DNA of 63,997 nt, filler included. It is 7 parts of 7 records of this genome, joined end to end, with 100 filler letters (N's around TTAATTAATTAA, not from the genome) between each part and the next. Parts side by side here need not be neighbours in the genome. Positions count along the whole stretch, not along the records: positions 18,316 to 30,175 come from SRR31147125_42603; 6 more parts are not named here. One strand, written 5' to 3'. The notes under the pieces were generated by a model that was not told the origin of the DNA, did not search any database, and saw only the letters and a program-made list of their open reading frames with translations. Shown piece by piece: positions 1,890 to 30,175 of this stretch; position 1 is the stretch's first letter, and every line of letters starts with the position of its first letter. Both the position numbers and the translations under genes were made by a program.

Positions 1890-1978
1890 AAAACGATCAT
1901 CCGAAATTTTTAAACGATAGTGGCTGGTTTGTTAACAAAATCGGAGCAAGATATCCCAAGGTATGGGTGTTGTCAAAT

Positions 1979-4900: not shown

Positions 4901-5599
4901 GTTGTTTTTTGCCTGGTTCAGCGGGATTTTGGGGAACTTGAGCTCCAGTTGAAATGTCGTTCCCACGCCCGGTTGACTGCGGCATGTGAGGACTCCCCCA
5001 TCAAATCGGTCAGTTGTTTGGAGATGGCCAACCCGAGTCCTGTGCCGCCAAACTCTCGTGTGGTGGAGTCATCGGCCTGGGTAAATGGTTTGAAGAGTTT
5101 CTCCACAGCCCTTTTGTCCATTCCGATTCCGCTATCTTCAACAGAAAAGCGAACAGTGATCTCCTGATCATTTTCCTTCAGTGTCGTCAGGGTGACCGTG
5201 ACGGTGCCTTTATGGGTAAATTTAACGGCATTGGAAATCAGGTTCAATAAAATCTGCCTGATTCTCACCGGATCCGCGCTGATATCAGGATGGTGAATCT
5301 CATGGCTATTGACGATAAGGTCCAGCCCTTTGGATGCCGCACGATGGGTCAATATTTGAATGGTATCTTTCAGAAGATCCAATAGATGGCAGTCAACGCG
5401 TTCAATGGAGAGTTTTCCGGCTTCGATTTTGGAAAAATCGAGAATGTCGTTCAAAATGGTCAACAGGGAATCCCCTGATGATCGAATGGTATTGACATAT
5501 GAGAGCTGATCGCCACTCAATGTGGTATCCAACAGCAGTTCCGCCATGCCCAGAACACCGTTCATGGGAGTCCGGATTTCATGGCTCATGTTGGCAAGA
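1979..5599 (-). CDS. Hybrid sensor kinase/c-di-GMP enzyme HisKA-HATPase-REC-HPt-REC-GGDEF-EAL; 5' truncated by contig end, one apparent frameshift
   Basis: MSHEIRTPMNG, NLISNAVKF, DSGIG, GGTGLGL; REC domains MIFMDCQMP and VLLDVIMP; HPt AHSMKSGSANLGA; RQGGDEF; AEAL and DDFGTGYSSL. One added base in the C run at 4995-4999 joins ORF 4918-5589 to ORF 1979-4966 (LMGGVLTCRSQPGVGTTF). Confidence 0.88.
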
Positions 5600-13278: not shown

Positions 13279-13410
13279 ATATTAAGTGTTGCTGGTATTG
13301 ATAGGATGTCTAGATATTGAACAGCACTGAAATTTAATGCTATAAATAGCTAATAAATTCGAACACTTATCTCTTGTGTGTTTGGCAGATTCCTTGCTTT
13401 GTGTGCCTGC

Positions 13411-16400
13411 ATGCGAAATCTATCTATATTGTTGTTTGTTTCAATCTTTTTGATTTCACCGAATCTTTTCTCCAAGACCATAGATAAGGAAAGCGCCTAT
13501 GAAATTGGAAAGGCCTATCAGATGAAGGGGGTGGATAGTGCGATTTCGGGTTTGGTAAAGGGGCGGGTTCGGGAGTTTGTAAGGGAAAATATCAAAGAGA
13601 TGACTCTTCAGTCTTTTTTCGAATCGGACGCCAATCTTAAAAACAAAAATGCAAAAAAAGAAGAGATTAAAAAACGCCTAAAAGAGAAGATAAAGAAAGA
13701 GCTCCCCGGGTTGGTAAAGAAGGCCCTCTATGAAGAACTCTTTCTTGGAAAATATGGAGAAGAAGTCAAAGAGGCTAGGGAGACGATTGATAAAATAGTC
13801 TTTGAGCTTCAAAAGAGTTTCAATGAAAGGGCTGATGAGTTGATTGAGAAAGTCTACTCTCGAGCAATTGCTGAAATAGATGAATATTTGGATTATGATG
13901 TCGGACGAATAAATATAAATCTTACTGACATAAGATCAACATTAGATCAGGCGATAAGGTTGGATACAATTGAATGGACAGCGACCGATTTTTTGAGTGG
14001 ACTGATTGGCCAGTCGACGGCCGAAGGGTTGAGAAGTCGTTTTAAAGATATAATGGATGGTCAGTTGCCACCTGAAGCGATTAGGTATCTAGATTATGGG
14101 CCAGATAAGTTTGCAGAGTATGTATCAAAAACAAAAGAATATCTTCCTGCCGCGCAATTTCAGAAATTAAAAAATCAGATTCTGCATACACCACTCTTTA
14201 TAATTCCAAACGGTCTCTATGGTGGAATTCTTGCCAGCTCCGCTGCGAAGCACTTTGCTGCGGCTTTTAAAGGTGCGGTTGTTGATCCTTATGAGTTAAA
14301 GCGAGGAAAAGAAGTAACTGAAGTTATGATTTGGCAGCTTAGTAATAAAGAAGGGATAAGCGTCGATTTAGATTCGATGCTCGATGCCTTGAAGATGATT
14401 GGTGACAAGCTCGGAGTCGGTTTGAATGATTTTGGAGCAATAGGAAAGAATCTAAAGCTTGCAAAAGATAGGTTGAAAGAGATCGAATCCCAGGTCAAAA
14501 AGTTCGATGATTACATTTCGGGAAAGATTGATTGGGTAGAGAGTGAGATAAAAGAGAGTGCTCAAAAGATAAAAGATGAACTTTTAGAATTTCAAAATGA
14601 TATCTTTAAGCCTGCTATAGATATTTATAAAAAAGCCGACAAAAAAGTTGATGCAACGAAGAATAGTTTGTTGAATAAAATTCCAGAAAATTTTTATGGG
14701 ATTCCAGAAAATTGGGAAAATGCAAAGAAGCAATTCGGGATTGATAAGGGTGTTTTTGGAAAGATTGGAGAATATTCGCCTTGGGATGCTATGCAAAAAG
14801 CAGCTGAGGAGTTGGGTCTAAAAAAAGCATACGAGAAATTCAAAAAAGATATGAAGCGGACTGCCGATGATCTTAACGATGCCGTTTCTGGTGCATTATC
14901 TACAGTTGCGGTAAATGTCGTTGATGCCTTTGGTTTTACAGATAAATTAGGAAAAGCCCTAGGTATAGAAGATGTCCCAGCAAATAATCCTTCGATTGAG
15001 AATCCTCTCGATCCTGTCTTGCTTCACAATGGTGAGTTTTTCTATAAATCGATCGACTTGAGGGTTCCGGGCAGAGGCGTCAATTTTGAATTTTCTAGGG
15101 TCTATAGAAGTCGCGCTGATTTCGTAGGATTCGTTGGTTATAATTGGTTTTTCAATTATGAAGAGTCTCTTGTTGTTGGCGATAAAAATATAATCCATAT
15201 AGACGAAAATGGTTTGAAGTTTGAGTATCAGTTTAATGACAATGGTAGTGGCCTTTCAAGCGATGGGCCTCAGCTTCTAAAGTCTCCAAGAGGTGTCTTT
15301 AACGTTCTCCATAAAACATCAAATGGATATGTTTTGAGAAAACCTGATGGCTTCAAAATATATTTTGCAAAATCTGGTCATATGATTAAGCGGGAAGACC
15401 GTTTTGGGAATAATCTTAAGTTTCTTTATGACAAATTTGGAAGACTTAAAAAGGTTGTCGATTCTCTCGGGAGAGACTTCCACTTTTTGTATAATAAAAG
15501 AAGTTTTCTAAAAGAGGTTCGTGATTTTGCAGGAAGGTCGGTTTTTTTAGAATATAGTAGAGATGATGATCTTGTTTCAGTCACAGGCCCCAAATCTTTT
15601 GCCTATCCAAAAGGGAAGAGGAAACTCTATGCCTATTCTACAGGTTTTGATAAAGACGAGCTGGCTCATAATATGCTCAGAGTTATGGATCCAAAGGGGA
15701 ATATTTATCTTAAGATAGAGTATGGTAGCAGCTCTTGCGATTTTGATAGGGTTATCTTGCAGCAATACGGCAAGAGTGGAAAGCCAATAAGGGTGCTTTA
15801 TAAATTTCTAAAGCCTGCATTTTTAGAAAAGTTTTTGGGGGAAGGCCTAAATCACAATATCGATGAAGTTGTCTTGACTGATAGGTTGGGAGTAGAGCAT
15901 GTCTATCAACATAATGCTTATGGGAATCTTTTAAACGAGTACTTGGTAAGTGAAGTTGGTGATAGAAAACTATTGCGTAAAATTAGGTATAATAGTGAAG
16001 GGCTGGTTGTAGAATCTTTGGATAGAAAAGGTGTTTTAATTAAACATATCTACGACGAAAAGAATTCAGATCGTTCTGCTCAAGGTAATCTCGTTAAGAA
16101 GAGAACTCTCTCTAGAGATAGAGTTAAAGAGAGGGTTTCAAAGTATGCTTATGAGTCTGAATATAACAGGGTAAAATTTTATAGAGCTCCATCTGGAGTG
16201 ACGACTTCAGTTTCGTTTGATGAGGGTAACGAAACGGTTGTCAAGATTCAAGCTGGTGATGGAAGGCAAGAGAAAGAATATGGATATAGGCGAAATGAAT
16301 TTGGGGAGATTGTTTGGCGCAAAAATCCCGAAGGTTTTGAATATGAAGAGTTGTATCAGAAGGGACGTCTTGTTGAAGATGATTTTGGTAATAGATATGA

Positions 16401-18215
16401 TTATGATCTAGTTGGAAACATCATTTCAAAGATTGATCCAATGGAGAATAGGTATAGATATCATGTTGGTAATTTAAATCAGTTGATATCCGAAGTTGCT
16501 CCCGAACCGTTTAATTATAAGAGATTTTATTATTATGATGAAAACGATAATGTTTCTAAAATCATTTTTCAGAATGTTGGAAGTTTGAATAGGGACTTTG
16601 TTGGCAAAGAGGTCTCATATCGCTACGAATATGATGATTTAGATCGCTTAATTGCTCTTGAAAAACAAGTTGATAAGGAAAAGTCGATTGTGAACAGGTG
16701 GCTTTATGATGCTGAAGGGAGGCTAATTCAAGAGATTTACCCAGAGGACAATTCTAAAAAATATTTTTATAGCAATTTAGGCGATTTGATTAGGGTGGAG
16801 AGTGGAGTGAAAGGTGAACGTGTCCAAGCGACAACCTTTAGATATAATAGTTATGGTGATTTGATTGAAGTGAAAAAATCAGGTGGTGCTGTAGAGAAGA
16901 TATCCCATGATAAGTGGGGAAGGGTCCAAAGCATTCTTTTATCGAGTGGAAGTTTGAAAACATTTCAGTACAATATTTTTGATAAGGTAAAATCGGTATC
17001 TCTAGTTGATAAATATGGCGATTTGCTATCAAAAGCAGAAGATGTTTTCGATGGGCTTGGTAGGGTTGTAGAAGAAAGACGACTGCTTTTTGATGATTCT
17101 CCAGACGAATCAAAATGGGTTTCTAAGAGATATCAGTATAACAAGAATGATAGTGTTGTGGAGATAATTGATGAAAATGGAAACAGTTGGGGATATAAAT
17201 ATAATAAGTATGGAAAGATTTCTGAAGTAAAGGACCCTATTGGCAACAGTGCCCTCTATAATTACGACAAAGTTCAAAAATTAACTCAGGTTCAATTTAT
17301 CTCCAACTCTGGGGATGTTCGGACTACCAAATATCGACACGATTCACTGGGTCGTCTCGTAAGTCTTGAAGAGCCAAACGACTCTCAAACAACATTTAAG
17401 TATGATAGTTTTGATAATGTTATTTCAAAAATAAGTCCTAGAGGGTTTCAGGTCCAGTTTTTATATGATGGGATTGGTCGTTTATTGGAGTCAAGATCGG
17501 AAATCAAGGGAGGCGAGTTTGCGGATACAAAATATCAATGGGACGATAATAGTAGGCTTAAGAAAATAACAGATGCAAACGGAAATTCCACAACCTACTC
17601 CCATGATCCCTTAGATAGATTACGTTCTACAGTCTATGCCGATGGTACTGTTGCAAGGTATAGCTATGACTTAGCTGGTAATCTTGTTTTTCATCAAAAG
17701 CCTGGCGGAGAAAAGGTTTTTAACCTTTATGATTTGTCGGGAAATATTGTTAGTAGAAGAACTTGGGGAGATTTAATAAAGGGTTCGTCTTGGCAATGGT
17801 TTTCGTACGACGGGATGGATCGTCTTGTAAGTTCCTTTGATAACAATAATGCAAGCGATGATTCAGATGATGTCCTAGCGTTTTATAAATACGATTCATT
17901 GTCGAGAAAGGTTGGAGAGGCGGTTAATGGAAAATGGGTTTCAACAAAGTTTGATTTATTAGGGAATCCAATAATAAAGAAGTATCCCTCTGGAAAGTTG
18001 CTCTATACAAATTATGATTCACTAGGTCACATTGAATCACAATTTTTTGACGGAAAAAAAGTGATAAAAAATGTGTTCCGAGGGGCGGGTCAGCTTGTCT
18101 CAACTGGATTCGGTAATAATCTCGAGTTGAATTTTAACTATTCAGATTCAGGTGAGCTTATTGAGGAACTTTTAATTAAAAATTCCTTGTCATCCTCGGG
18201 CTTGACCCGGGGATC
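13411..18215 (+). CDS. RHS/YD-repeat protein with a Sec signal peptide, a long helical N-terminus and DUF6531; 3' truncated
   Basis: MRNLSILLFVSIFLISPNLFS-K; DPVLLHNGEFFYKSIDLRVPGRGVNFEFSRVYRS; many YDxxGR/YDxxGN repeats. Confidence 0.9.
18189..18215. repeat. REP/RPE-like palindromic element at the contig end
   Basis: GTCATCCTCGGGCTTGACCCGGGGATC is a GC-rich hairpin in AT-rich CDS; the assembly breaks here. Confidence 0.6.
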
Positions 18216-18315: not shown

Positions 18316-18990
18316 TGTCGAATCTGAGAATTCATGACTGAAGAGGTTCTTATCAGATAAATTTTTTTGCGACGCATATTGGATCATGGTTTGATATTCT
18401 TGGTGGGTATCGGCGTCCATGACCACGGCTGGATCGTCGATACCGATTTTCAAAATTGAATTTTCATATTTGGTAAAAAGCGCTCTTGCCCCCATATCCC
18501 CTTCAATCCCCATCAGTTCGGGAAACAGGCGATGATGAATGATCACCGGATTTCCTCTCTTTTCGTCAAAAAAGGGAATTCCGATGGGAGACGATGTTTC
18601 GTTGAATGAGAGGATCATCCGATTGATGATGCCTTCATGAACCAGGGGCTGATCCGAAAGAAGAAACATGGCGGCCCGGCACTGTTCCGGGAGCTGTTCC
18701 ACCCCTTTTTTTACGGAGGAACTTTGCCCCTGACGCCATTGGTCATTGATGATGGTCTGAACCGATAATTCATCCGGTTGCAGTCTTCTCAAAATATCAT
18801 CGGCACGATATCCCAATACCACAATCACGGGATCCAAGTCGGACTTCAATGCATTGTGAATGACCTGCCCGAGAAGTGTGGTATTCTTGAAAGGCATCAG
18901 TTGTTTAACCCGTGATCCCATACGGCTCCCCTGCCCTGCCGCCGGAATGATACCGGCAATGGTTGATGAAAAATCCGGGCTCATGGTCAT
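18316..18990 (-). CDS. mocA: MocA-like molybdenum cofactor cytidylyltransferase; stop codon not seen
   Basis: IIPAAGQGSRMG..KQL, GQSSSV, LSDQP, RGNPV, GDMGAR, DADT. Confidence 0.85.
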
Positions 18991-18997
18991 GGGTTCA

Positions 18998-19810
18998 TCA
19001 GTCTCCTTTGAGATGGGTAATCCTGTACGTGTCTCGGTGCAGTGACCCTAAAATCACTCGATCCACATTCAGCGGCGGATCTTTTTCCAAGGCGCATAAC
19101 ATTTCGTATCCCGCTTTTTTTCTAAAATCGTTATCAGCCTTGTTCAAAAAAATCGACAAAGAGGCTGTGTCCGGCATCTCCCTCTTTGTCTTGATCAGCG
19201 ACACTTCATGGCGGAGCAATCGATCGATGCTCTCCGAAGTGATGGGCTTGTTTATCGGGATTTCACTGATTTCAGAGATCCGGCGCGCCCTGAAGACGTT
19301 CTCATCATTGAGGGGTAACCCCATCGCATCCAGCCCTGTCACCATCACGCAAGCGCTGGTGACAGAGGGAATGACCGGTTCGTGGGATTCACACGCTTTG
19401 ATGGGTTTACCTCTTGCGCCATCGGCTTCCACAAGAATCCAGTCAAACACTTCCGCGCGATATAACGTATCCACCTGCCTGGAAGTCAATCCTTTTAGTT
19501 TTGTTCTATCTTGATTTTTCGGATCGTCAATTGGTTTGCAGGCAGCGGTCAGATGATTCATGCCGGCCAAAGCCCGTTGCGATTTTCCGATGATCTTTTC
19601 AACCGACTCCGAAACAATCACGGTGGAGGATTCCTGGGGCGTCGGCATAAAAATCTTGGTTGTGGTCGTCGTGAGAACCGTTTTCCCACAAGCAGCCAGC
19701 TCTTTGGCCAGCTGGTACATCAATGTGGTTTTCCCGCCGGCCCCCACAATGGAGACCACCCCCGTCTCTTTTAAACCGAGGACGTCATGTAATTTCATGG
19801 GTAACTTCAT
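18998..19810 (-). CDS. yqeC: Selenium-dependent molybdenum hydroxylase accessory protein YqeC
   Basis: VSIVGAGGKTT, TTTTKI, VEADGARGKPIKA..HEPVIP; adjacent to mocA-like gene. Confidence 0.88.
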   Translation of the reverse strand: MKLPMKLHDVLGLKETGVVSIVGAGGKTTLMYQLAKELAACGKTVLTTTTTKIFMPTPQESSTVIVSESVEKIIGKSQRALAGMNHLTAACKPIDDPKNQDRTKLKGLTSRQVDTLYRAEVFDWILVEADGARGKPIKACESHEPVIPSVTSACVMVTGLDAMGLPLNDENVFRARRISEISEIPINKPITSESIDRLLRHEVSLIKTKREMPDTASLSIFLNKADNDFRKKAGYEMLCALEKDPPLNVDRVILGSLHRDTYRITHLKGD

Positions 19811-19857
19811 GGGTTTGTTCGGACGATTCTACCAATGGACCCTTGCCATGCAGCGGC

Positions 19858-20550
19858 TTATGTTCCGCTTGCTTCCAAAAGGGCATTCCCACTGATCTCA
19901 TCGAGCACATCCGGAATGGAAAGTAGAAAATTCATGGCATCGAGAACATGCTCACTCATCAGGCTGCAGGCTTTGTCTTTTTTCCTCTCTTTGATCATTT
20001 CAACAATCTCTCGATGATATGCCGAGGATTTCTCCAAATGTTCTTTATAATGGAGTGTCCGATAGCTGAATCGTCTAATTTGTTTATGTAAATTGGATGC
20101 CACCGTTTTTAACCGGTGGTTACCTGCAATCTCCATAATCATGATATGAAATTGTCCATGCAATTTTTGATAGTTTAAGATATCACTATCGGCACTGTCC
20201 GTGATGTCGCTCATTTGATTCACAAAATCGAGTAAATCTTCTGTTTGATCCGTGGTGATTCGATCCATTGCAAGATCGGTTGCCAGAGCATAAAGAGAGG
20301 CTTTCAAGGTATACACCTCCCAGATGTCTTCTTCCGACAACTCAACGACAAATGTTCCTTTTCGTGGTTTTCGAATCACCAAGCCCTGGCCTTCCAAGGT
20401 TTGAAACGCCTCTCTGACAGGGGGGCGACTGATATCCAATTTTGCTGCAATATCATCTTCTTTAATCTGTTGACCCGGTTTCAGCTCGTTCGTTACGATC
20501 AATTGTTCGATATAGCGTGTTGTCATTTCTGCAAGTGACTCAACTCTCAT
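19858..20550 (-). CDS. GntR-family regulator (FadR/VanR type, FCD domain)
   Basis: LKPGQQIKE...ISRPPVREA...LEGQGLV; FH..IMEIAGN..L; His residues typical of the FCD domain. Confidence 0.93.
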   Translation of the reverse strand: MRVESLAEMTTRYIEQLIVTNELKPGQQIKEDDIAAKLDISRPPVREAFQTLEGQGLVIRKPRKGTFVVELSEEDIWEVYTLKASLYALATDLAMDRITTDQTEDLLDFVNQMSDITDSADSDILNYQKLHGQFHIMIMEIAGNHRLKTVASNLHKQIRRFSYRTLHYKEHLEKSSAYHREIVEMIKERKKDKACSLMSEHVLDAMNFLLSIPDVLDEISGNALLEASGT

Positions 20551-20591
20551 AACGCTGTTCCTTCAAATATGTAAAATGAAACTCAAAAAAA

Positions 20592-20611
20592 GTCTATTGT
20601 ATACAGAAAAA
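20592..20611. promoter_or_regulatory. Putative GntR operator 1, upstream of gntR
   Basis: GTCTATTGTATACAG overlaps a minus-strand TTGACT-N18-TACAAT promoter. Confidence 0.65.
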
Positions 20612-20705
20612 AACCAATCAGTCAACAATGATCCACGTACTTCCAAATGATCCAGGCACGTCCATTGGATGGAATGGATGGCGCCGAGAGAACGCCGTCC
20701 TTGTG

Positions 20706-22169
20706 TCAACACATGTCTGCATCTGCTTGGTTCAAAATGTCTGCAAACGCGTTTCGGGTTTCATCAGGCAGATCAATGGGACCTGCCTCTTTCATCACTT
20801 CCCGAAGCGATTCTTTTACCCGTTCATTGAGATCTTTTCTTCCCGCATTCTCCCAACTGGTTCGATCCAGGCGTGTAAAATTGACGGGCTTTTCCACACT
20901 TCGACAATGCTTGAATGTGTGGGGGGTGGTCAGAAACTGTCCGCCGTAATCAATGGTCATCAATTCATCCCATGCCAATTGGTCATCATCAAAATGCATC
21001 TCTTTCATGATGGCTTTGGCCATGCCGAAAATTTCATTGTCGATGCCAAGGGCGATGGGACTGACTGTACATGCCGTTTCAAGCTGACCGGCACCGCCGA
21101 GGACAGATGCTCCGGAGCTTGCAATGAGCATGGCCCGCATGGCCCGTTCGGCCATCCCCTGACCGTCAATGTCGGGGGAGTCGCACCCGGAGCCGTATGT
21201 ATGTGCCGGAATCCCGAACCCATCCTGCATGATCCGTGGAAACAGTGCCGATTGTCGCAAAGACTCGACGCTTGACTGTAAACTTCTTCCCGTTCCCATG
21301 TCACCGGAAAATTGGAGGGATGTGGCAATGATCGGCGTTCCCGGTCGAACCACCTGGGCAACGGCCAGCATGACGAGATTTTCAACAACGGAGAGCAATA
21401 CACAACCGGCAACGGTAAAGGGACCGGTCACCCCGGAGCCGGGAAGGCTGCAAGGCTGAATCCCACATCCCACTGAAGCGGCCTGATAGATGATTTCCAT
21501 ATCCATCCATTTAAAAACAAATGGAGTGAGAGAGCAGGTGATCCAGCTGGCCAAAGGATTTTTTCGCAGCTTCTCCTCTCCGCCGGCGGCAGCCACCAGC
21601 AACTGAACCAAATATTTTACACTCTCTCCGGTATAGGGTTGGATCCAGATATGCTTTTCCGCATTTTCCAACATGGTTTTCAATGCATAAATATCCGCCG
21701 TTGCAGAAGGGGCGTCATCCGGAACCAGAAACGGAGAGTAGTTGATGTGCTCCAACCGATCGGCCAGCCTGGCCCAGTACGCCAGATTTTCCAGTGTGAC
21801 CCGCTCATAGCTTCCGGTTTCCGGATCCAGCCAGGTTTGTCCGCCGGTACAGAGTCTTGTATAGAAAAGCCCTTGGGGATGGGGAAATTCCATGGGGAAT
21901 TTGCCGTCTCGTCCCGCCAGTGTAAAATGTTTGGGCGCCTTTGCCAGTTGCTCTTCCATAAATGCCTTTGGAAATCGAACCACTTCCGAATCTCCATCGA
22001 CCTTGGCCCCCTCTTTTTCCAGCAGATCCAATATCTCTTTATGATCGATTTTTACCCCACGTTTTTCAAGCAGTTCAAATGCGCGCGCTTTCATCAGCGC
22101 CAGTTGTTCATCGGTGTAAAACTGCATTGCGGGTTGGAATTTCATAACGTTACCTCCATTTTTAGACAA
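20706..22169 (-). CDS. Trimethylamine-methyltransferase (MttB) superfamily protein, non-pyrrolysine
   Basis: LLEKRGVKID, VVRFP, APKHFTLAGRD, SLTPF, AQVVRPGTP, GAGQLE, IDNEI, GGQFL..HT; no in-frame TAG. Confidence 0.9.
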   Translation of the reverse strand: MSKNGGNVMKFQPAMQFYTDEQLALMKARAFELLEKRGVKIDHKEILDLLEKEGAKVDGDSEVVRFPKAFMEEQLAKAPKHFTLAGRDGKFPMEFPHPQGLFYTRLCTGGQTWLDPETGSYERVTLENLAYWARLADRLEHINYSPFLVPDDAPSATADIYALKTMLENAEKHIWIQPYTGESVKYLVQLLVAAAGGEEKLRKNPLASWITCSLTPFVFKWMDMEIIYQAASVGCGIQPCSLPGSGVTGPFTVAGCVLLSVVENLVMLAVAQVVRPGTPIIATSLQFSGDMGTGRSLQSSVESLRQSALFPRIMQDGFGIPAHTYGSGCDSPDIDGQGMAERAMRAMLIASSGASVLGGAGQLETACTVSPIALGIDNEIFGMAKAIMKEMHFDDDQLAWDELMTIDYGGQFLTTPHTFKHCRSVEKPVNFTRLDRTSWENAGRKDLNERVKESLREVMKEAGPIDLPDETRNAFADILNQADADMC

Positions 22170-22180
22170 GCTTTAAGCCC

Positions 22181-23481
22181 TCATTTCAGGATGCTCGGCA
22201 GCCACAGGGCGAACTCCGGAAAGAGAAACAGTAATAAAATATTGATATAGATGGGGATGAGAAAGGGAAGCGAGCCTTTGACAATGGTTCCCATGGGATG
22301 CCAGGGAACCACCCCTTTTAACACGAACAGGCTCAACCCGAACGGCGGGGTGATGGTGCTCTGCTCACCGGCCAGTACATAGACGATTCCCCACCAGATG
22401 GGGTTGATGTCGAGTCCGATGATGACGGGCATGACAAACGGAAAGGTCAAAAAGAGCATGGACCAGGAATCGAAAAACATCCCCATGAAAAAATACATGA
22501 CAAAAAACATCACCATAATGCCGTATTTTCCAATGGGCAGTGCAACGACAAATTCCTGGATCATGGGAATGATTCCGGCGGAGTTGAACACGTGGGAAAT
22601 CAACGTGGCCATGGCCATGATAAAGAGAGAAAATGAGGTGACAAGGACGGTGTCAAGCAGGCTCTTCTGAACGATGGCAAAGGTGAGTTTTCGATATCCG
22701 ATGGTGAGGATGATACTTAAGAATGCCCCGAGCCCCGCTGCTTCCGTTGGCGTCATGAGTCCCCCGAAAATCGCGCCGAGCACGCCTAAAATAACACCGG
22801 CAAAGGGGATCGCATCAATCAGAGCCTTCATTTTTTCCTTGAATGAGTAGCTCACCGTTGCAGGGGCCAGGGACGGATCGAGTTTCACCATGACGATGGT
22901 GGTCAAGATAAACAAAAACATCAGCGTCAGGCCGGGAATCAGGCCAGCCGCCAGCAGATCGACAATGGAGAGCCCCTGCCAGCTGCCGTACAGAATGAGA
23001 AGGATGCTCGGCGGTATCAACGGGGCCAGCACGGTTCCGGATGCAATGGATCCCAATGCCAGCTTTGGAGAATATTTTTTTCCTCCATCACCGGAAAGGC
23101 GATTTTTCCGAAGGTGGCGGTGGCCGCAATGGTGGAGCCGCACATGGCCCCGAAGATGGCATTCCCGCAGATGACCGAGCAGGCCAGTCCGCCGGGAAGC
23201 CCGCCCACCCATTTTTCAACGGCATTGAAGAGCCGCGTATTGACCCCGGTATTCCCGAGAATCCCGCCCATGAAGACAAACAGGGGCAAGGCCGTCAATG
23301 TAAACGAATTGAGGGATCCAAAGGCGGTTTCGGCCAATTGGCTGACCGGTTGATCCACATACCACAAAAGCCCGCCAACGGCGACAATTCCCACGGACCA
23401 TCCGATCTCCAGTCCCAGGATCAACAGAAAAAACAGAATCGCAACCAGAAGAATCGCGATTATCATTTCAGAGCCCATCAT
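22181..23481 (-). CDS. dctM: TRAP transporter large permease DctM; apparent frameshift
   Basis: ALPLFVFMG, FGAMCGS, GTVLAPLIPPS, TPTEA, TPPFG; one added base in the T run at 23075-23081 joins the two ORFs (MEEKKYSPK). Confidence 0.9.
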
Positions 23482-23996
23482 TCATCTCCTCCGGCATTGC
23501 CGACATTGCTCTTAAGCGAAATGAGTGCCTTCAAAATTTCGGCGATTAACTGAAGAAGCAGCAGCACGGAACCGATCAATATCAAGGATTGGGGATAGAC
23601 AAGGGGCGTCCGGAGCCAGCTGCCGCTTTTGGATTCAAACAGAATGGAGTCCTGCAACATCTGCCAGCTCCCGGCGATGAGGGGAATACAAAACAGAGTG
23701 GCAAGAAGCAGGGTAAAGAAACGGAGCCGGTTTTTCCATCTGTCCGGCAGGAAATTGATGGCCAACTCCACCCTGACATGGCCATTCTCCTTCCAGGTGT
23801 ATCCCAATCCCATGAAGGCAATGGCCACAAGCATATATCCGCCCAGCTCGTCGGCAATGGAAAGGGGGGATTTGATGACGTATCTGGCCAAGACTTCCAC
23901 CATCACCATCAGCATGAGAATGAAAACCATCCACCCTTGTAGATGGCCTCCAATCCAATCGGTTATCTTTTCTATTATTTTTACAATTTTAGCCAT
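23478..23996 (-). CDS. dctQ: TRAP transporter small permease DctQ
   Basis: Four hydrophobic segments; EVLARY, DELGGY, GHVRVE. Confidence 0.9.
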   Translation of the reverse strand: MAKIVKIIEKITDWIGGHLQGWMVFILMLMVMVEVLARYVIKSPLSIADELGGYMLVAIAFMGLGYTWKENGHVRVELAINFLPDRWKNRLRFFTLLLATLFCIPLIAGSWQMLQDSILFESKSGSWLRTPLVYPQSLILIGSVLLLLQLIAEILKALISLKSNVGNAGGDE

Positions 23997-23999
23997 CGA

Positions 24000-25082
24000 T
24001 TATTTTCCCGTAAATGACTGATAGGAACCTACAGCGGCTTTTACAGCTTTGAGAAGCTCAGCTCTTTTGGACTTCCAGGGTCCGTCGAGCTCCAGCCACT
24101 CTTTTTCCACAAGATCGGCGCTCTTTTGGATGGCATCGGTTTCGCTTTCATTGAAACGGGTTCGTTTGACGCCGGTCAAATCCACCGTATCCATGCTCAT
24201 GATATATTCCGCAGTGGTGGAGAGACTGACCATTCTCTGAAGTTCGGATCCCACATCCATGACAACCTCTTGAAGATCGGCAGGAAGCGAATCAAAGGTT
24301 TTCCGGTTCATGAGGGTCACCGCCGACCAGGTGGGAGAGAGCGGCGTGATGGTGAAGTATTTAGACACTTTGGCAAGTCCGATGGAGTATCCGTAACCCA
24401 GGCTGGTCAATACACCGTCAATGGTACCCGCCATCATGGCCGGTGCCAGTTCGGAACCTGAAATGGTGACCGGACTTGCGCCAAGAGCGGAGATCCCTTT
24501 GGTGGGTAGATATCCGCCCACACGAATTTTCATTCCATTCAAATCGGAAAGGGTATGAATCTCTTTGTTACTCCAGATTCCGTTGGCCGGATCCCACTGG
24601 GTGACGAACCAGAATTTCAATCTGAATTTTTTCAAGGTCTCATCATAGATATTGCGAACGGTCTCATCTTCATAGACGGCCAACTCCTGTGCAAGGCCTT
24701 TGACGGGGTCTTCATCGACAATGCCGGGAATCTCCCCCCAGTTCCAGATGGGATAGGTGCCGGAGAGCCAGGGCATGGGGACGTCTCCCATATCGGCTTT
24801 TCCCTTGGCGACCGCCATGAAAAGCTCATTGGAAGAGAACATACGGGGGATGATTTCCAACTGAATTCGCCCACCGCTTCTATCATACAGCATCCGCTGC
24901 ATCTCTCCGCCCGGACGATAGATTTGGGAGGCTCTGAACTTGGGTCCCCAGATATCGTTCCATGCAAATTTCAGCTTGTACACTTTCTTCCCTGCACTGA
25001 ATCCGGTGGACGGTACGGCGATCAATGCAGCCGACATGATTACCAGAGCGATCAGTTTAATACGGTTGGTTCTTCTACTCAT
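24000..25082 (-). CDS. dctP: TRAP substrate-binding protein DctP
   Basis: Signal peptide; RSGGRIQLEI, DLNGMKIR, ALGASPV, GTIDG. Confidence 0.9.
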   Translation of the reverse strand: MSRRTNRIKLIALVIMSAALIAVPSTGFSAGKKVYKLKFAWNDIWGPKFRASQIYRPGGEMQRMLYDRSGGRIQLEIIPRMFSSNELFMAVAKGKADMGDVPMPWLSGTYPIWNWGEIPGIVDEDPVKGLAQELAVYEDETVRNIYDETLKKFRLKFWFVTQWDPANGIWSNKEIHTLSDLNGMKIRVGGYLPTKGISALGASPVTISGSELAPAMMAGTIDGVLTSLGYGYSIGLAKVSKYFTITPLSPTWSAVTLMNRKTFDSLPADLQEVVMDVGSELQRMVSLSTTAEYIMSMDTVDLTGVKRTRFNESETDAIQKSADLVEKEWLELDGPWKSKRAELLKAVKAAVGSYQSFTGK

Positions 25083-25186
25083 TTCATCATCTCCTTACTA
25101 AATTTTTCGGTTTAATAAATATATAAAGTGACGAAATTTCGTCACATGGAGACAGGGGAAATAATCTGTTGAAGATTCTCTTAATT

Positions 25187-25206
25187 GTTTATAGTATACA
25201 ATAGAC
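25187..25206. promoter_or_regulatory. Putative GntR operator 2, upstream of the dctPQM-mttB operon
   Basis: Minus strand GTCTATTGTATACTATAAAC, 2 nt after TTGACA (25209-25214). Confidence 0.7.
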
Positions 25207-25396
25207 GATGTCAAGCATGTTTTTCCATTTTTTATGATCGACGATAACCGGACCGAAGTCCGGTATAACGGTTGGATACGCTGTAAAACCGGAAACAAGG
25301 GCTTTGAAATAGCCCGTCATATTTGCTAAAGCATCATAATTAGTGATACTTTAGCATTTATTCGTAGAAATTTAAAATCGACTGTGGAGGAAAAAA

Positions 25397-27182
25397 TGGT
25401 GCTCGCACCCAATGACCCGACTCAACTTCTTGAATTGATGGAAACCGCCCAAGGCAGGCGTTTTCCCGACCTTGTCATCACCGGAACCGATCTTGTCAAT
25501 GTCTATACCCGAGAGGTGATTGAAACCGTCTCGATCAGTATTAAGGGAGAACGAATTGCTTACATCGGTCCAAAAGAGGATTTTGCCAAAGGGCCTGACA
25601 CCCGTGTGGTGGATGGAACAGGGAAGATCGCCCTTCCGGGATTCATCGAAGGGCACACCCATCTGGCCACGCTGCTCCCCGTCCACACATTCCTCCCTTA
25701 TGCCGCCAAAGGGGGGACCACAACCATCATCACCGAAACCATGGAGATGTACCCCGTGGGCGGACGAGCGGCTGTGGAAGAATTTCTTTCGAGCCTAAAA
25801 AATCAACCGATCAAATTCCTATCGACCTTGCCGGCCATGGGAAGCATCGATCACGAGGCCCTGGGGATTGACATGGCGGATCTCAACGCGTTGATACGGC
25901 GGAATGACGTCATCGGCCTCGGGGAGTCTTACTGGCAAAATGTCTGCCGTCATCCGGAACGCTTCTTATCCGCCTTTTCGGAGACCATGACATGTGGAAA
26001 ACTACTGGAGGGCCATTCCGCAGGCGCTTCCGGCAGAAAACTGGCGGCTTACCTCTCATTGGGAATCTCCTCCTGTCATGAACCCATCACTGCGGATCAG
26101 GTGCTGGCTCTGCTCAGAAGCGGGGGTCATGTCATGATCCGGGAGGGGGGCATTCGATCCGATCTTGAATCCATTGCGGAAATTAGAGATATGGGGGTGG
26201 ATCTCAGAAAGCTATGCCTGGTATCGGATTCCGTGACACCCGGGTTTTTAAAAGAAAAGGGATATATGGACGCCATTTTGCAAAAAGCCATCGATGCCGG
26301 ATTCCATCCGCTGGATGCCGTTCGTATGGTCACCCTCAATGTTGCGGAACACTTTCATCTGTCGGAACATATCGGCGGCATTTCACCGGGGCGCTATGCC
26401 GATATGCTTCTTGTCAAAGACCTTCGAGAAATTGAGGCGGAAATGGTGATCAGCAACGGCAAAATCATCGCCGAAAACGGACGATTCACAGAAAAAGCGC
26501 GGGTTCACAACTTTTCTTCGAATTCCCGAGACTCGATAAAGCTCCCCGGAGAAATGACGGCAGAGGATTTCAACATTCCGGCCGGGGGGATCACCGGACA
26601 AAAAGAGGAAAAGAGCGGGTTCGAGTGATCGAGATGGTCACGGATCTGGTGACCACGGAAACACAAATGGATCTTGACGTTGAAAACAGCCTGATTCTTC
26701 CGGATCCGGATCGTGATATTCTCAAAGTGACGGCCATTGATAGAAGCAGCAACACCAAAGAGCGATTCAATGGATTCATTACCGGATTCGGAATGAAAGC
26801 CGGGGCATTTGCCGCTACCGGTGCATGGGATTCATCCCACATTATCGTCGTGGGTGCCGATGGTCACGCCATGGCCGGAGCGGTGAACCGGATCCGGGAG
26901 ATGGGCGGCGGGATCGTGGTGCGGGGAGCCGATGCAAAATGCGCTGAACTGGCCCTCCCCGATTACGGCCTGTTTGCACCGTCCGCCCTCTCATTGCAGG
27001 AAATCGTTGATGCGTTGGCACGGATCACACAGGCCGTCCACGCTCTTGGATGTTCATTTCACGATCCGCTTCTCAGTTTAAGTGCCTTGACCGGTGCTGC
27101 CATTCCATTTTTTCGCATCTGCCATAAAGGATTGTTTGATTTTAAGAAAGATCAATTATTATCGCTACGGAGCGACACATAA
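25397..27182 (+). CDS. Adenine deaminase-family amidohydrolase, divergent; apparent frameshift near 26584-26620
   Basis: LPGFIEGHTHL, GTTTI, EGHSAG, CHE, IREG, MVTLNVAEHF, PGRYAD; C-terminal domain GAFAATGAWDSSHIIVVG lies in the -1 frame. Confidence 0.85.
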
Positions 27183-27232
27183 AAACAACAAAAATGAAAT
27201 CGCAAAAAATTTATAATAAAATATTGACAAGA

Positions 27233-27252
27233 GTCTTTTGTATACAGTAGAC
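27233..27252. promoter_or_regulatory. Putative GntR operator 3, upstream of the second TRAP operon
   Basis: Near-palindrome GTCTTTTGTATACAGTAGAC, 3 nt after TTGACA (27224-27229). Confidence 0.7.
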
Positions 27253-27414
27253 ACAATAATCGTTAGTGCTTCGCCCACAATTTCTTGTTAACAGAAATGA
27301 GACTGGGAGAGGCGGTGCGGATTCCCCGCGTTGGTTGTATTGCTTCTCAACCATGAACCTGTCATCAATTTCTTTTGACAGGTAGAAATAACAACACAAA
27401 AAAAGGAGAGAGTC

Positions 27415-28472
27415 ATGGGTATTACCGTCAAGCGTTTCAAAATCAGCGTCATGTTAACAGCGCTTGTGATTTTCGGGAGTCTGTGTTTCGGTTCCTCATC
27501 TTTTGCAACAGAGAAAACGTACAATATCCGGTTCAGTACCTGGCATGTACCGGCCGGGGCGGATGTTCAAAAGCTGTGGATCCCCATGCTGGAAGAGATG
27601 AAAAAAAGAAGTAACGGCCGCCTGACCTATACCATGTACGCCGGCGGAGCACTGGGAAAAGGCCCGGCCCATTACGACATTGTGAAAACCGGGCTTTCGG
27701 ATATGGGATATGCCACCCTGAGCTGGACACCGGGCCGCTTTCCGCTCACCGATGTCCTGTCGGCGCCCATTGTCTGTCCTGCCAAATGGAAAGGGGCTGA
27801 AGCGGGCAAGGCCATGCACGATCAGCTGCTTCACTCAGAATTCAAAGGGATCAAAGTGCTCCATATAAACAACTGTGTCATGGCGCACCTCTGGACCACC
27901 AAAAAGGTAAAAACCATCGAAGACTTGAAGGGAATGAAAATCAGAAGCCCCGGCGGTCTTCAGACGCGTGCCATCGAAGCGTTGGGAGCCACCCTGTTTT
28001 CATGCCCCTGGGAGATGTCTATCTCTCCATGGAGACCGGCGTGATCGATGGCGTGGTTACTTGTCCGGCACTTGTCAAAGCCTTTAAACTGTATGAAGTG
28101 GCCAAATATGGGGTTCCCACGTCGTTTGGATGTGTTTCAGAGGGACTTTTCGTCAATGAGCGATTTTGGAAGAAACTTCCCGACGATCTGAAAGCCATTG
28201 TCGAAGAGGTCGGGGGTAACGCCTATAAGGTAGCCGGTATTTTTGACGAGCATTGGTATGCCCACACCATGGAAGGGTTTGGCAACACCCTTGAAATTGA
28301 AACGTTGTCCGATCAGGAACAGGCCCGTTGGGATGACCTATTCAAAACGATGATGGGGGAGTGGGCCGATGAACTTGAAGCAAAAGGGAAACCGGCCAGA
28401 AAAGCCCTAAGCATGTTCAAAAAAGAGTTGGAAAAAGTGACGGTCGATTTCAACGCCTGCCCCGTGAAGTAA
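27415..28472 (+). CDS. dctP: TRAP substrate-binding protein DctP; apparent frameshift
   Basis: Signal peptide; KRSNGRL, GRFPLT, DLKGMKIR; one added C at 27992-27994 gives LGATPVFMPLGDVY..METGVIDG. Confidence 0.9.
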
Positions 28473-28550
28473 CATAAACCGGAAGCGTGTCTTGGTTAAT
28501 TGAATAGCATTTGCCAAGGCATTCTTACCGACACATGAGGACCCAATCAA

Positions 28551-29075
28551 ATGAACAGCACTTCCCCTGGATTTCTCTTTAAAATTAAACTGTTGGTCGA
28601 GCGACTGACCCATGCAGCCCTGGCGGTCGGCATGGGTTGGGTTCTGCTGATGATGTTTTTGACCACTTTTGATGTGGCAGGGCGTTATTTTCTCTCAAAA
28701 CCGATTCCCGGGGCCATTGAGATGAGTGAGTTCATGCTGGCCGTTTTCGGTATCCTGGGCATGGCCTACACCCACATGGCCGGTGCCAATGTCAAAGTGA
28801 CCATGCTGACACAGGTACTCCCGGTACGATTGGGACACGGGATCGATATCATGACCCATCTACTCAGTCTGCAAATTGCCTTTTGTCTTTCCTGGTACGG
28901 CATTATCTCCGCAATTGAAGAGTACGACCTCGGTACCACCACGGATACCCTGGGGGTTCCCATTTATCCATTGTACTTTTTATTGAGCTTGGGTTCGGGA
29001 TTGCTCTGTCTGGTGATTGTCATCAACATCGGTGAGTCGATAGCCCGCTTTTTCAACCCCAAAGCCGCCTTATAA
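28551..29075 (+). CDS. dctQ: TRAP small permease DctQ
   Basis: DVAGRY...PIPGAIEMSE; four hydrophobic segments. Confidence 0.9.
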   Translation: MNSTSPGFLFKIKLLVERLTHAALAVGMGWVLLMMFLTTFDVAGRYFLSKPIPGAIEMSEFMLAVFGILGMAYTHMAGANVKVTMLTQVLPVRLGHGIDIMTHLLSLQIAFCLSWYGIISAIEEYDLGTTTDTLGVPIYPLYFLLSLGSGLLCLVIVINIGESIARFFNPKAAL

Positions 29076-29128
29076 AAATCACTCCCATTGCAGACCACCT
29101 GCCACAACAAAGAAGGACAACATAGATC

Positions 29129-30175
29129 ATGGATCCACAACTCATTGGACTTATTGGCATCGCATCTCTCTTTCTTCTACTACTTCTGGGGATGCCCATT
29201 GGATTTTCCCTGGCCTTTATCGGGTTTTGGGGGATCGGTTTCATCACGGACATCGAGGTGGCCCTGCCGACACTGCTGCGCTCCTTTCACGGTACGTTTA
29301 CCACCTATTCATTTACCGTGATCCCTCTGTTCGTTCTCATGGGCGAGTTGGCCACGGTATCGGGGCTGAGTGAAGGCATCTATCAAGTGGCCGACAAATG
29401 GCTCAGGCGCCTTCCCGGAGGACTTGGAATCGCGACCATCTGCGCATGTTCGGGCTTTGCCGCCATCTGCGGATCATCCGTGGCAACGGCGGCCACACTT
29501 GGAAAAGTGGCGCTTCCGGAAATGGAAAAATACAACTACGATACCCGATTGGCCACGGGCAGTGTCGCAGCCGGCGGTACCTTGGGATTTTTGATTCCTC
29601 CCAGCATCGGATTTGTGGTCTACGGTATTTTGACGGAGCAGTCCATCGGAAAACTGTTGGTATCCGGATTTGTTCCCGGATTCATGCTGGCGGTGGCCTA
29701 TGGTGTGATTATTGTCGTCTGGGTCATGGCAAAACCGGATGCGGCCCCTTCCAATCCGGAACGCGTGGCTTTTTCGGAAAAAATTCTCTCATTGAAACAA
29801 GTATGGGAACTCATTGTGGTCTTTTTCCTGGTCATGGGCGGCATTTATCTCGGGTTCTTCACTCCCACGGAAGCCGGAGCGGTGGGCGCGTTTTTCCTTT
29901 TTGTCGTCACGCTCATTCGAAGAAAATTGACCTGGCCGGCATTGAAGGAGGCCATGACCGCCACCACGCGGGTTTCCGTGATGATTTTCATGATTCTATC
30001 CGGGGCCTACGTCTTTACCTATTTTATGGCGTTGACCATGATTCCCATGAATCTCTCCATCTATCTATCCGGATTGGCCATGTCCAAATATGCCATACTG
30101 GCCGTTATCTTGATCGCATTTCTCATTCTGGGCTGCTTTTTGGATGCCACCTCCATGATGGTGCTCACCCTTCCG
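29129..30175 (+). CDS. dctM: TRAP large permease DctM; 3' truncated
   Basis: GMPIGF, VIPLFVLMG, FAAICGSS, GTLGFLIPPS, FTPTEAG. Confidence 0.92.

Follow-up and report, generated by a model that had tools for sequence, protein, structure and literature searches.

Which compound is handled by a gene cluster in which a methyltransferase of the MttB family is joined to two tripartite ATP-independent periplasmic (TRAP) importers and to maturation genes for selenium-dependent molybdenum hydroxylases? This question is raised by positions 18316-30175 of the stretch of DNA analysed here (the window, 63,997 nucleotides), which correspond to one whole contig of 11860 bp. Reading function, substrate and route from gene context, we propose with moderate confidence that this contig is a fragment of a GntR-controlled N-methylnicotinate (trigonelline) utilisation regulon of a Desulfobacterales-like anaerobe, in which MttB is predicted to act as a trigonelline:corrinoid methyltransferase that feeds a selenium/molybdenum nicotinate pathway. 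On its minus strand, the contig carries dctP1-dctQ1-dctM1 followed by the MttB gene, as well as gntR/FCD, yqeC and a mocA-like gene, while the plus strand carries an adenine-deaminase-family gene followed by dctP2-dctQ2-dctM2, which run off the contig end:

18316..18990, minus strand: mocA-like molybdenum cofactor cytidylyltransferase gene (PF12804, 4.7e-31), 3' end cut by the contig end, start uncertain
18998..19810, minus strand: yqeC, selenium cofactor biosynthesis protein for selenium-dependent molybdenum hydroxylases (PF19842, 1.1e-42)
19858..20550, minus strand: GntR/FCD-family regulator, presumed binder of a shared operator (PF00392 and PF07729)
20706..22145, minus strand: non-pyrrolysine MttB-family methyltransferase of 479 amino acids (aa) (PF06253; TIGR02369 below cut-off); ATG chosen by orthologues, reading frame open to 22169
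22181..23481, minus strand: dctM1, large TRAP permease (PF06808 on both halves; 85-87% identical to the DctM of related locus L004)
23478..23996, minus strand: dctQ1, small TRAP permease (PF04290, 2.5e-28)
24000..25082, minus strand: dctP1, solute-binding protein of the MttB-linked importer TRAP1 (PF03480, 1e-27; 77% identical to the L004 DctP)
25384..27182, plus strand: adenine-deaminase-family amidohydrolase (PF01979, Amidohydro_1, and PF13382, Adenine_deam_C)
27415..28472, plus strand: dctP2, solute-binding protein of the second importer, TRAP2 (PF03480 on both halves)
28551..29075, plus strand: dctQ2 (PF04290, 7.6e-23)
29129..30175, plus strand: dctM2, 3' end cut by the contig end (PF06808, 1.7e-71; 81% identical to the TRAP2 DctM of genome G001)

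An earlier note, made from the sequence alone, had named these genes (mocA-like, yqeC, gntR, MttB, the TRAP sets and the deaminase homologue) as lying on one contig, and the profile matches bear this out. Its description of a non-pyrrolysine MttB gene directly downstream of a TRAP set on the same strand is likewise correct, as the gene has no in-frame stop and dctP-dctQ-dctM lie upstream. DctP, DctQ and DctM were found together twice on the contig, which therefore carries two TRAP transporters. YqeC scores 174 bits against a TIGR03172 cut-off of 73 and is thus assigned to this equivalog, while the mocA-like product reaches 172.4 bits against a TIGR03310 cut-off of 186.45, on a gene that is cut by the contig end.

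The connection with nicotinate comes from 15 related loci that carry an MttB of the same clade (L001-L008, L019-L021, L054, L056, L057 and, from genome G099, L075), whose neighbourhoods were mapped by blastx against labelled reference proteins. A metagenome scan gave five loci in all, one of them a 22% paralogue and one (L055) a duplicate of L002. The clade MttB proteins of these loci are 42-80% identical, and the synteny observed around them is recurrent. The order starts with TRAP1 (dctP, dctQ, dctM), MttB, a corrinoid protein (in some loci only), GntR, an aldehyde dehydrogenase, TRAP2 (in some loci) and a PF06684 protein, and goes on with a three-subunit molybdenum hydroxylase, an amidohydrolase, a ferredoxin-domain protein, a PRK04334-like protein and, again in some loci, YqeB, YqeC and MocA. 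TRAP1 adjoins the clade MttB in 12/15 loci, an orthologue of GntR is present in 10, and in L001, L054 and G099 the hydroxylase operon is immediately preceded by TRAP2. Within the DNA retrieved for each locus, nicotinate-catabolic genes were seen in 10/15 loci (L001, L003, L005, L006, L007, L019, L020, L021, L054 and L075), with only the PF06684 gene visible in L019, at the contig end. Among the five loci without them, three (L002, L056 and L057) lie on contigs of 2.3-6.2 kb, and the sequence of L004 breaks off in the aldehyde dehydrogenase; four of the five end about 2.4 kb or less from MttB or from its GntR-aldehyde dehydrogenase neighbours.

Several of the genes in these loci point to nicotinate as the compound that is degraded. 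Among solved structures, the large hydroxylase subunit is nearest to the L and M chains of nicotinate dehydrogenase 3HRD (1.1e-114 and 4e-72), and the amidohydrolase that follows the hydroxylase matches enamidase 2VUN over its full length (E 2.5e-138). L006 instead encodes 2-hydroxymethylglutarate dehydrogenase (3CKY, 2.4e-98) and 3-methylitaconate isomerase (3G7K, 4.7e-169), together with a serine-dehydratase-like protein, a B12 mutase and a GlmL-family protein. A PncA nicotinamidase, above its cut-off, lies between two importers in L021, and L004 carries a nicotinate phosphoribosyltransferase. Judging from its similarity to CoA-acylating methylmalonate-semialdehyde dehydrogenase (372 bits, below the cut-off), the aldehyde dehydrogenase could turn 2-formylglutarate into glutaryl-CoA. 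Given these nicotinate-type neighbours, the substrate would be an N-methylated pyridine carboxylate, namely trigonelline, rather than the methylxanthines or methyladenines that had been suggested earlier. We propose trigonelline because no other N-methyl compound gives, on demethylation, the starting compound of the linked pathway; the same reasoning, and the adjacency to MttB, make TRAP1 the candidate trigonelline importer.

The relationship of the window to these clusters is best seen in the closest genome, G001, a complete 7.85-Mb chromosome of a metagenome-assembled genome (MAG) whose MttB is 80% identical to that of the window. Its cluster of about 45 kb begins with a deaminase-like gene (divergent from a TRAP gene) and a second molybdenum hydroxylase, followed by an aldehyde dehydrogenase, an MtbC/MtgC-like corrinoid protein, a methyl-tetrahydrofolate (methyl-THF):corrinoid methyltransferase, YqeB, XdhC, MttB and GntR. 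A second aldehyde dehydrogenase, TRAP2, the nicotinate-dehydrogenase-like genes and the enamidase come next, and the cluster ends with the ferredoxin-domain protein, the PRK04334-like protein, a second YqeB, YqeC and MocA. The window's GntR is 67% identical to the regulator adjoining MttB in G001, its DctP2 75% identical to the DctP preceding the nicotinate dehydrogenase operon, and its mocA-like product 45% identical to the MocA-like protein that closes the cluster. YqeB is absent from the window contig, while G001 has two copies (341 bits against a cut-off of 220). The earlier note had seen no corrinoid protein or hydroxylase gene on the contig and had advised searching the source genome for them; both are indeed missing there, and both were found in orthologous clusters, including that of G001, where XdhC and YqeB accompany them. 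The corrinoid protein of these clusters is MtbC/MtgC-like, and the methyl-THF:corrinoid methyltransferase scores above its cut-off. Among the best 120 of 250 relatives (E <=0.001), the proteins closest to those of the window are 66-81% identical and all are at least 51% identical; where the source is named, the closest belong to Desulfobacterales, Desulfobulbaceae and related MAGs. One relative, at 56% identity, is by its source name from Desulforhopalus singaporensis.

Two further observations concern these clusters. In G001 (L011:626-4486), the second three-subunit molybdenum hydroxylase lies between TRAP genes, adjoins the deaminase-like gene and stands behind a perfect copy of the operator described below; among solved structures it is nearest to 4-hydroxybenzoyl-CoA reductase. 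Moreover, in the nicotinate cluster the ferredoxin-domain gene is always followed by the gene of a conserved protein of about 285 aa, which the PRK04334 'hypothetical protein' models of NCBIfam match below cut-off:

L010:13382-14251, L021:4533-5411, L052:643-1488 and L075:11399-12229: PRK04334-like protein

The linkage between this MttB clade and nicotinate genes was compared with what other MttB paralogues show. Among 112 MttB-family matches in five clade-carrying genomes, only five lie 2-11 kb from an enamidase, one per genome, and all of them are clade members; on the same contig, no other paralogue comes within 160 kb. Across a sample of 401 genomes of the class, 7 have the clade (scored at E <=1e-140, with three candidates per genome) and 24 the enamidase, with an overlap of 6/7 and a hypergeometric P of 1.6e-7 that is too optimistic, since the compared genomes are related. 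Genome G099 provided an out-of-sample case, having been picked up via a deaminase homologue 3 kb from an enamidase. Here, MttB, TRAP1 and the deaminase-like gene run one way and face a full nicotinate operon from GntR to the PRK04334-like gene. The G099 MttB is a 13th clade member, 42-57% identical to the others and at most 28% identical to paralogues, and keeps 20/22 of the clade-specific residues introduced below.

Is the MttB of the window distinct enough from its characterised relatives for a substrate of its own? The protein is matched by PF06253 over its full length (189.3 bits against a cut-off of 25, residues 8-485), has no in-frame stop and carries glycine at the position aligned to the pyrrolysine of the Methanosarcina enzyme 7XCL. 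With 290.5 bits against a TIGR02369 cut-off of 525, it is not assigned to the pyrrolysine-dependent trimethylamine (TMA) methyltransferases. Its match to MtgB (2QNE, E 7e-39) is weaker than that to the pyrrolysine-containing MttB 7XCL (5.7e-46), and a close relationship to the characterised MtgB (2QNE/9YCE) was not found. A tree of 29 rows, comprising 12 clade members, 16 paralogues of G001 and G211 (TAG-containing ones included) and L058, shows the clade as monophyletic with 100/100 support and a stem of 1.09 changes per site. A set of 22 residues, R97, W124, K212, F279, F310, H315 and Y317 included, does not vary within the clade and occurs in none of the 16 paralogues. To this set also belongs Gly320, in the pyrrolysine column, which in paralogues is filled by L, T, S, V, A, C or pyrrolysine. 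We also observed that G001, G211, G314 and G360 each carry 7 to 46 MttB-family genes, many of them with a single in-frame TAG, and because of these TAG codons the organisms probably also encode pyrrolysine-type methylamine methyltransferases.

These data bear on the possibility that MttB is an ordinary methyltransferase for an aliphatic betaine (glycine betaine, proline betaine, carnitine or similar) that is merely co-located or co-regulated with the nicotinate genes, for example in an osmolyte-scavenging island. TRAP importers for betaine-like solutes exist, as such a view would expect. Moreover, in the available part of PMC10653893, the known substrates of the superfamily are TMA, glycine betaine, proline betaine, carnitine and butyrobetaine, and the characterised members without pyrrolysine all use aliphatic quaternary amines. 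However, the long and fully supported branch that parts the clade from 16 paralogues of the same genomes, its distance from MtgB, the exclusive position of clade members near the enamidase among 112 paralogues and the maintenance of this linkage from 42% to 80% identity make an aliphatic substrate improbable in our view.

Co-regulation of the window's operons by the GntR protein is suggested by a 20-bp palindrome, GTCTATTGTATACAATAGAC, found at three places on the contig:

20592-20611: operator copy before gntR, left half-site and core only (GTCTATTGTATACA then GAAAAA)
25187-25206: operator between the divergently oriented dctP1 and deaminase-like genes, 2 mismatches to GTCTATTGTATACAATAGAC
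27233-27252: operator before dctP2, 2 mismatches to GTCTATTGTATACAATAGAC, just past a TTGACA at 27224-27229

The number of matches expected by chance is 0.00 for the two copies with 2 mismatches. The motif precedes orthologous operons in L001, L011, L004, L005, L006, L019, L054 and L076, twice as a perfect palindrome, while L003, L007, L008, L010, L020 and L021 showed none within 4 mismatches. In L006, it stands both before the TRAP1-MttB-corrinoid protein operon and before the operon of the lower nicotinate fermentation branch, and elsewhere it recurs ahead of MttB, GntR, TRAP and deaminase genes. The regulator combines a helix-turn-helix with an FCD domain, and the repeated palindromes have a GT..AC core, as in GntR/FadR-type regulation, so that the motif is its predicted operator. 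A promoter-like site (TTGACT-18-TACAAT, minus strand, 20625-20596) overlaps the copy before gntR, in a scan that overall did not exceed chance: promoter and terminator counts were no higher than in shuffled sequence (15 vs 12.6 and 14 vs 13.2). An Rfam scan of the contig gave only a chance-level match to an internal ribosome entry site, below the gathering score, and no riboswitch in the long leaders. The shared operator motif reported earlier is thus real and conserved in relatives, and the idea of a GntR regulon that joins TRAP import, a non-pyrrolysine MttB and molybdenum/selenium hydroxylase maturation is supported.

The substrate class proposed in the earlier note did not hold up in the same way. 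That note envisaged the import of methylxanthines or methyladenines, their corrinoid-dependent N-demethylation, deamination by a COG1001 enzyme and hydroxylation by a selenium/molybdenum purine hydroxylase. In agreement with it, the regulon includes an adenine-deaminase-family gene whose orthologue in G001, aligned to 3NQB, keeps the HxH, Glu, His, His and Asp metal ligands, and, of the NCBIfam families, that of selenium-dependent xanthine dehydrogenase comes closest to the hydroxylase large subunit (552 bits, short of the cut-off of 830). YqeB, YqeC and MocA also accompany purine hydroxylases. The predicted conservation of a linkage between MttB, a xanthine-dehydrogenase-family hydroxylase, YqeC/MocA and the deaminase-like gene was likewise found in other genomes, but the hydroxylase neighbours turned out to be of the nicotinate rather than the purine type. 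No further purine-catabolic gene was seen in any of 16 loci; instead, the neighbours are nicotinate-specific, from the 3HRD-like dehydrogenase and the 2VUN-like enamidase to the lower branch in L006 and the nicotinamidase. In addition, TRAP binding proteins generally need an acidic group, which purines lack. A methylated purine is therefore a highly improbable substrate.

The deaminase-like gene is the sole element that still favours purines. The protein is about 30% identical to 3NQB and falls below the TIGR01178 cut-off (199.7 and 112.3 bits for its two halves against 472.5). The family is common in the class (164/401 genomes), mostly in unrelated surroundings: around 29 homologues, about 1.5 kb on each side held no conserved context, with a TRAP gene only at G099 (L045). 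The gene nevertheless forms part of the cluster in the window, in G001, in G099 and in G042, where it comes right behind the ferredoxin-domain and PRK04334-like genes, and it lies 8 kb off in G360. All that is left of it in L054 (81-438) and L057 (507-864) are fragments that correspond to residues 249-292 and 515-594 of the G001 protein; the adjoining TRAP1-MttB operon is intact. Because the gene has decayed there with TRAP1 and MttB intact, the enzyme would not be needed ahead of MttB, and we regard the gene as a dispensable, recurrent accessory hydrolase, a family member of unassigned specificity.

A related question is whether the same system might act on another N-methylated heteroaromatic compound, such as homarine (N-methylpicolinate), 1-methylnicotinamide or an N-methylated hydroxylated intermediate; in the case of 1-methylnicotinamide, the deaminase-like amidohydrolase would remove the amide first. 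An amidohydrolase between two importers (of the deaminase family here, the PncA nicotinamidase in L021), the second molybdenum hydroxylase of a different type beside the deaminase-like gene in G001 and the presence of two TRAP systems, which imply two imported solutes, could all be read in this sense. The enamidase and the 2-hydroxymethylglutarate branch of L006, however, belong to nicotinate itself, the 3-carboxylate, and the decay of the deaminase-like gene in L054 and L057, where TRAP1 and MttB are intact, suggests that its product is not needed ahead of MttB. We consider such a substrate possible but unlikely.

For trigonelline, the route that these genes would compose is as follows. GntR would bind the palindrome GTCTATTGTATACAATAGAC before each operon. 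TRAP1 would import the pyridine betaine, the MttB-clade enzyme would transfer the N-methyl group of this betaine to the corrinoid protein in its Co(I) form, and the methylcorrinoid:tetrahydrofolate methyltransferase would move it to THF; the genes for the latter two proteins are present in orthologous clusters and absent from the window contig. Methyl transfer from an N-methylpyridinium to Co(I) is chemically plausible, since nicotinate leaves far more readily than a tertiary amine. A selenium-dependent molybdenum nicotinate dehydrogenase would then hydroxylate the released nicotinate, or nicotinate taken up via TRAP2 as the putative nicotinate-side importer; MocA, YqeB and YqeC would serve to mature this enzyme. 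The hydroxylated product would be reduced, opened by the enamidase and oxidised by the methylmalonate-semialdehyde-dehydrogenase-like enzyme.

Several points weigh against this reading, in addition to the relatedness of the compared genomes and the scoring of three clade candidates per genome only. The substrate is deduced from neighbouring genes only. The characterised carnitine, proline-betaine and butyrobetaine enzymes and MtgB are not among the rows of the tree. The window contig, which ends in dctM2 and mocA, carries no hydroxylase, enamidase, corrinoid protein or methylcorrinoid:THF methyltransferase, and the last two adjoin the clade MttB in only 3/15 related loci (L001, L006 and L019). 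The 10 kb downstream of GntR in L008 are taken up by unrelated genes. The NCBIfam placement of the hydroxylase near xanthine dehydrogenase, mentioned above, has to be counted here as well. Comparison of DctP1 and of the G001 TRAP2 DctP with solved structures returned only distant TRAP binding proteins and gave no clue to their ligands. Finally, the recurrence of the deaminase-like gene with the cluster in five genomes is not accounted for by a trigonelline route.

How does the proposed system compare with known ones? Like MtgB of the MtgB/MtgC/MtgA system of Desulfitobacterium hafniense (2QNE, 9YCE) and like MtcB, MtpB and MtyB, the window's MttB is a PF06253 protein without pyrrolysine. As in the Mtg system, MttB is accompanied in some orthologous loci by a corrinoid protein, of MtbC/MtgC-like type, and by a methyl-THF:corrinoid methyltransferase, and methyl transfer to Co(I) is presumed. 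The clade is, however, only distantly related to MtgB and stands apart: glycine fills its pyrrolysine column, it has aromatic and basic residues of its own that do not vary, and its ties to TRAP import and nicotinate catabolism would imply an aromatic N-methylpyridinium substrate.

The nicotinate side resembles the fermentation of Eubacterium barkeri. Orthologous loci carry close full-length relatives of 3HRD, 2VUN, 3CKY and 3G7K, and their selenium-type maturation genes fit a selenium-containing nicotinate dehydrogenase. The large hydroxylase subunit is, however, fused (757 aa) instead of being split into the L and M chains of 3HRD, most loci have the methylmalonate-semialdehyde-dehydrogenase-like enzyme in place of the fermentative lower branch, and MttB, two TRAP importers and GntR are added; the catabolic enzymes themselves are absent from the window contig. 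In aerobic trigonelline degradation (tgn genes, Acinetobacter baylyi), oxygenases open the ring without prior removal of the methyl group, whereas the route proposed here for the same substrate would be anoxic and begin with corrinoid-dependent demethylation to nicotinate. The maturation genes recall the ygfJ(mocA)-yqeB-yqeC region of Escherichia coli, which is surrounded by purine-type genes: the MocA-like, YqeC and, in G001, YqeB families are present in both, but the client hydroxylase in the loci studied here is nicotinate-dehydrogenase-like.

As given, the window sequence shows dctM1, the deaminase-like gene and dctP2 each split by frameshifts, which raised the question of whether the locus is a decaying, non-functional remnant. 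All breaks sit at homopolymers (an A7 run, a G6 run at 26583-26588 and a T4/C4 stretch). We compared the sequence with a Logan assembly of run X1, which contains 99% of the sampled words and is possibly the window's own source. The corresponding Logan contig is a single piece of 11865 bp at a depth of 96, without substitutions relative to the window in the stretch compared, and lacks the breaks: it has one-base insertions at 23074 (dctM1), 25390 and 26583 (the deaminase-like gene, the former near its start) and 27991 (dctP2). When the four insertions are applied, the three genes become single open reading frames of 433, 595 and 352 aa that align end to end with their orthologues. Since the missing bases are present in the Logan contig and the genes are then intact, the splits are homopolymer errors of the window's assembly, the pseudogene reading of the three genes is rejected, and the probability that the locus is a remnant is practically negligible. 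The window's assembly is thus short by one base at four homopolymers within 7.8 kb (20700-28500), and further split genes in the same assembly may be comparable artefacts. The Logan contig is 5 bases longer than that of the window; the fifth difference lies outside the compared stretch, possibly around the junction of yqeC and mocA, a gene whose start is uncertain.

The window as a whole consists of seven contigs joined by N44+12+N44 spacers, with GC contents from 0.365 to 0.52; the contig at 18316-30175 has 0.498 and its neighbours 0.365-0.39. The contigs look like those of different organisms, and for this reason neighbouring contigs were not used as context for one another. One contig with a GC content of 0.51 carries, at 474-5598 on the minus strand, an O-methyltransferase-like gene, a response regulator with GGDEF and EAL domains and a histidine kinase fragment, and may share its organism with the MttB contig. 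At 13378-18215 (plus strand), a reading frame of 1629 aa with YD/RHS-like repeats, recognised by eye, runs off the end of an AT-rich contig. On the contig with a GC content of 0.52, two reading frames at 61332-62886 (minus strand) match separate parts of the profile of eukaryotic Nck-associated protein 1 (PF09735) and resemble exons of a eukaryotic gene.

Trigonelline is widespread as a solute of plants and algae. Its production by algae is also described in the accessible text of bioRxiv 10.64898/2025.12.19.695462. In the portion available of a 2024 Nature Metabolism paper (PMC10963276), no trigonelline demethylase is said to be known, and a 2023 mSystems article (PMC10805028), as far as its available text goes, lists trigonelline as a possible unknown aromatic methylamine for anaerobic methylotrophy. 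Our literature search, which left most subscription journals and supplements outside, found nothing joining MttB with nicotinate, and the partial texts that it returned on trigonelline with MttB, corrinoid or cobalamin terms described no such enzyme. Somewhat more tentatively than for the regulon itself, we suggest that the clade may represent the first trigonelline demethylase, a corrinoid-dependent N-methylpyridinium methyltransferase serving marine sulfate reducers, with the deaminase-like partner as a candidate new amidohydrolase acting on a pyridine amide or amine. As an enzyme clade with a conserved importer, regulator and operator, it makes trigonelline demethylation directly testable. 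If this proposal is true, the MttB superfamily would be widened from aliphatic quaternary amines to an aromatic betaine, and marine sulfate reducers would use the methyl group as a one-carbon fuel and the ring via a selenium-dependent nicotinate pathway, adding a route for the turnover of pyridine betaines in anoxic sediments.

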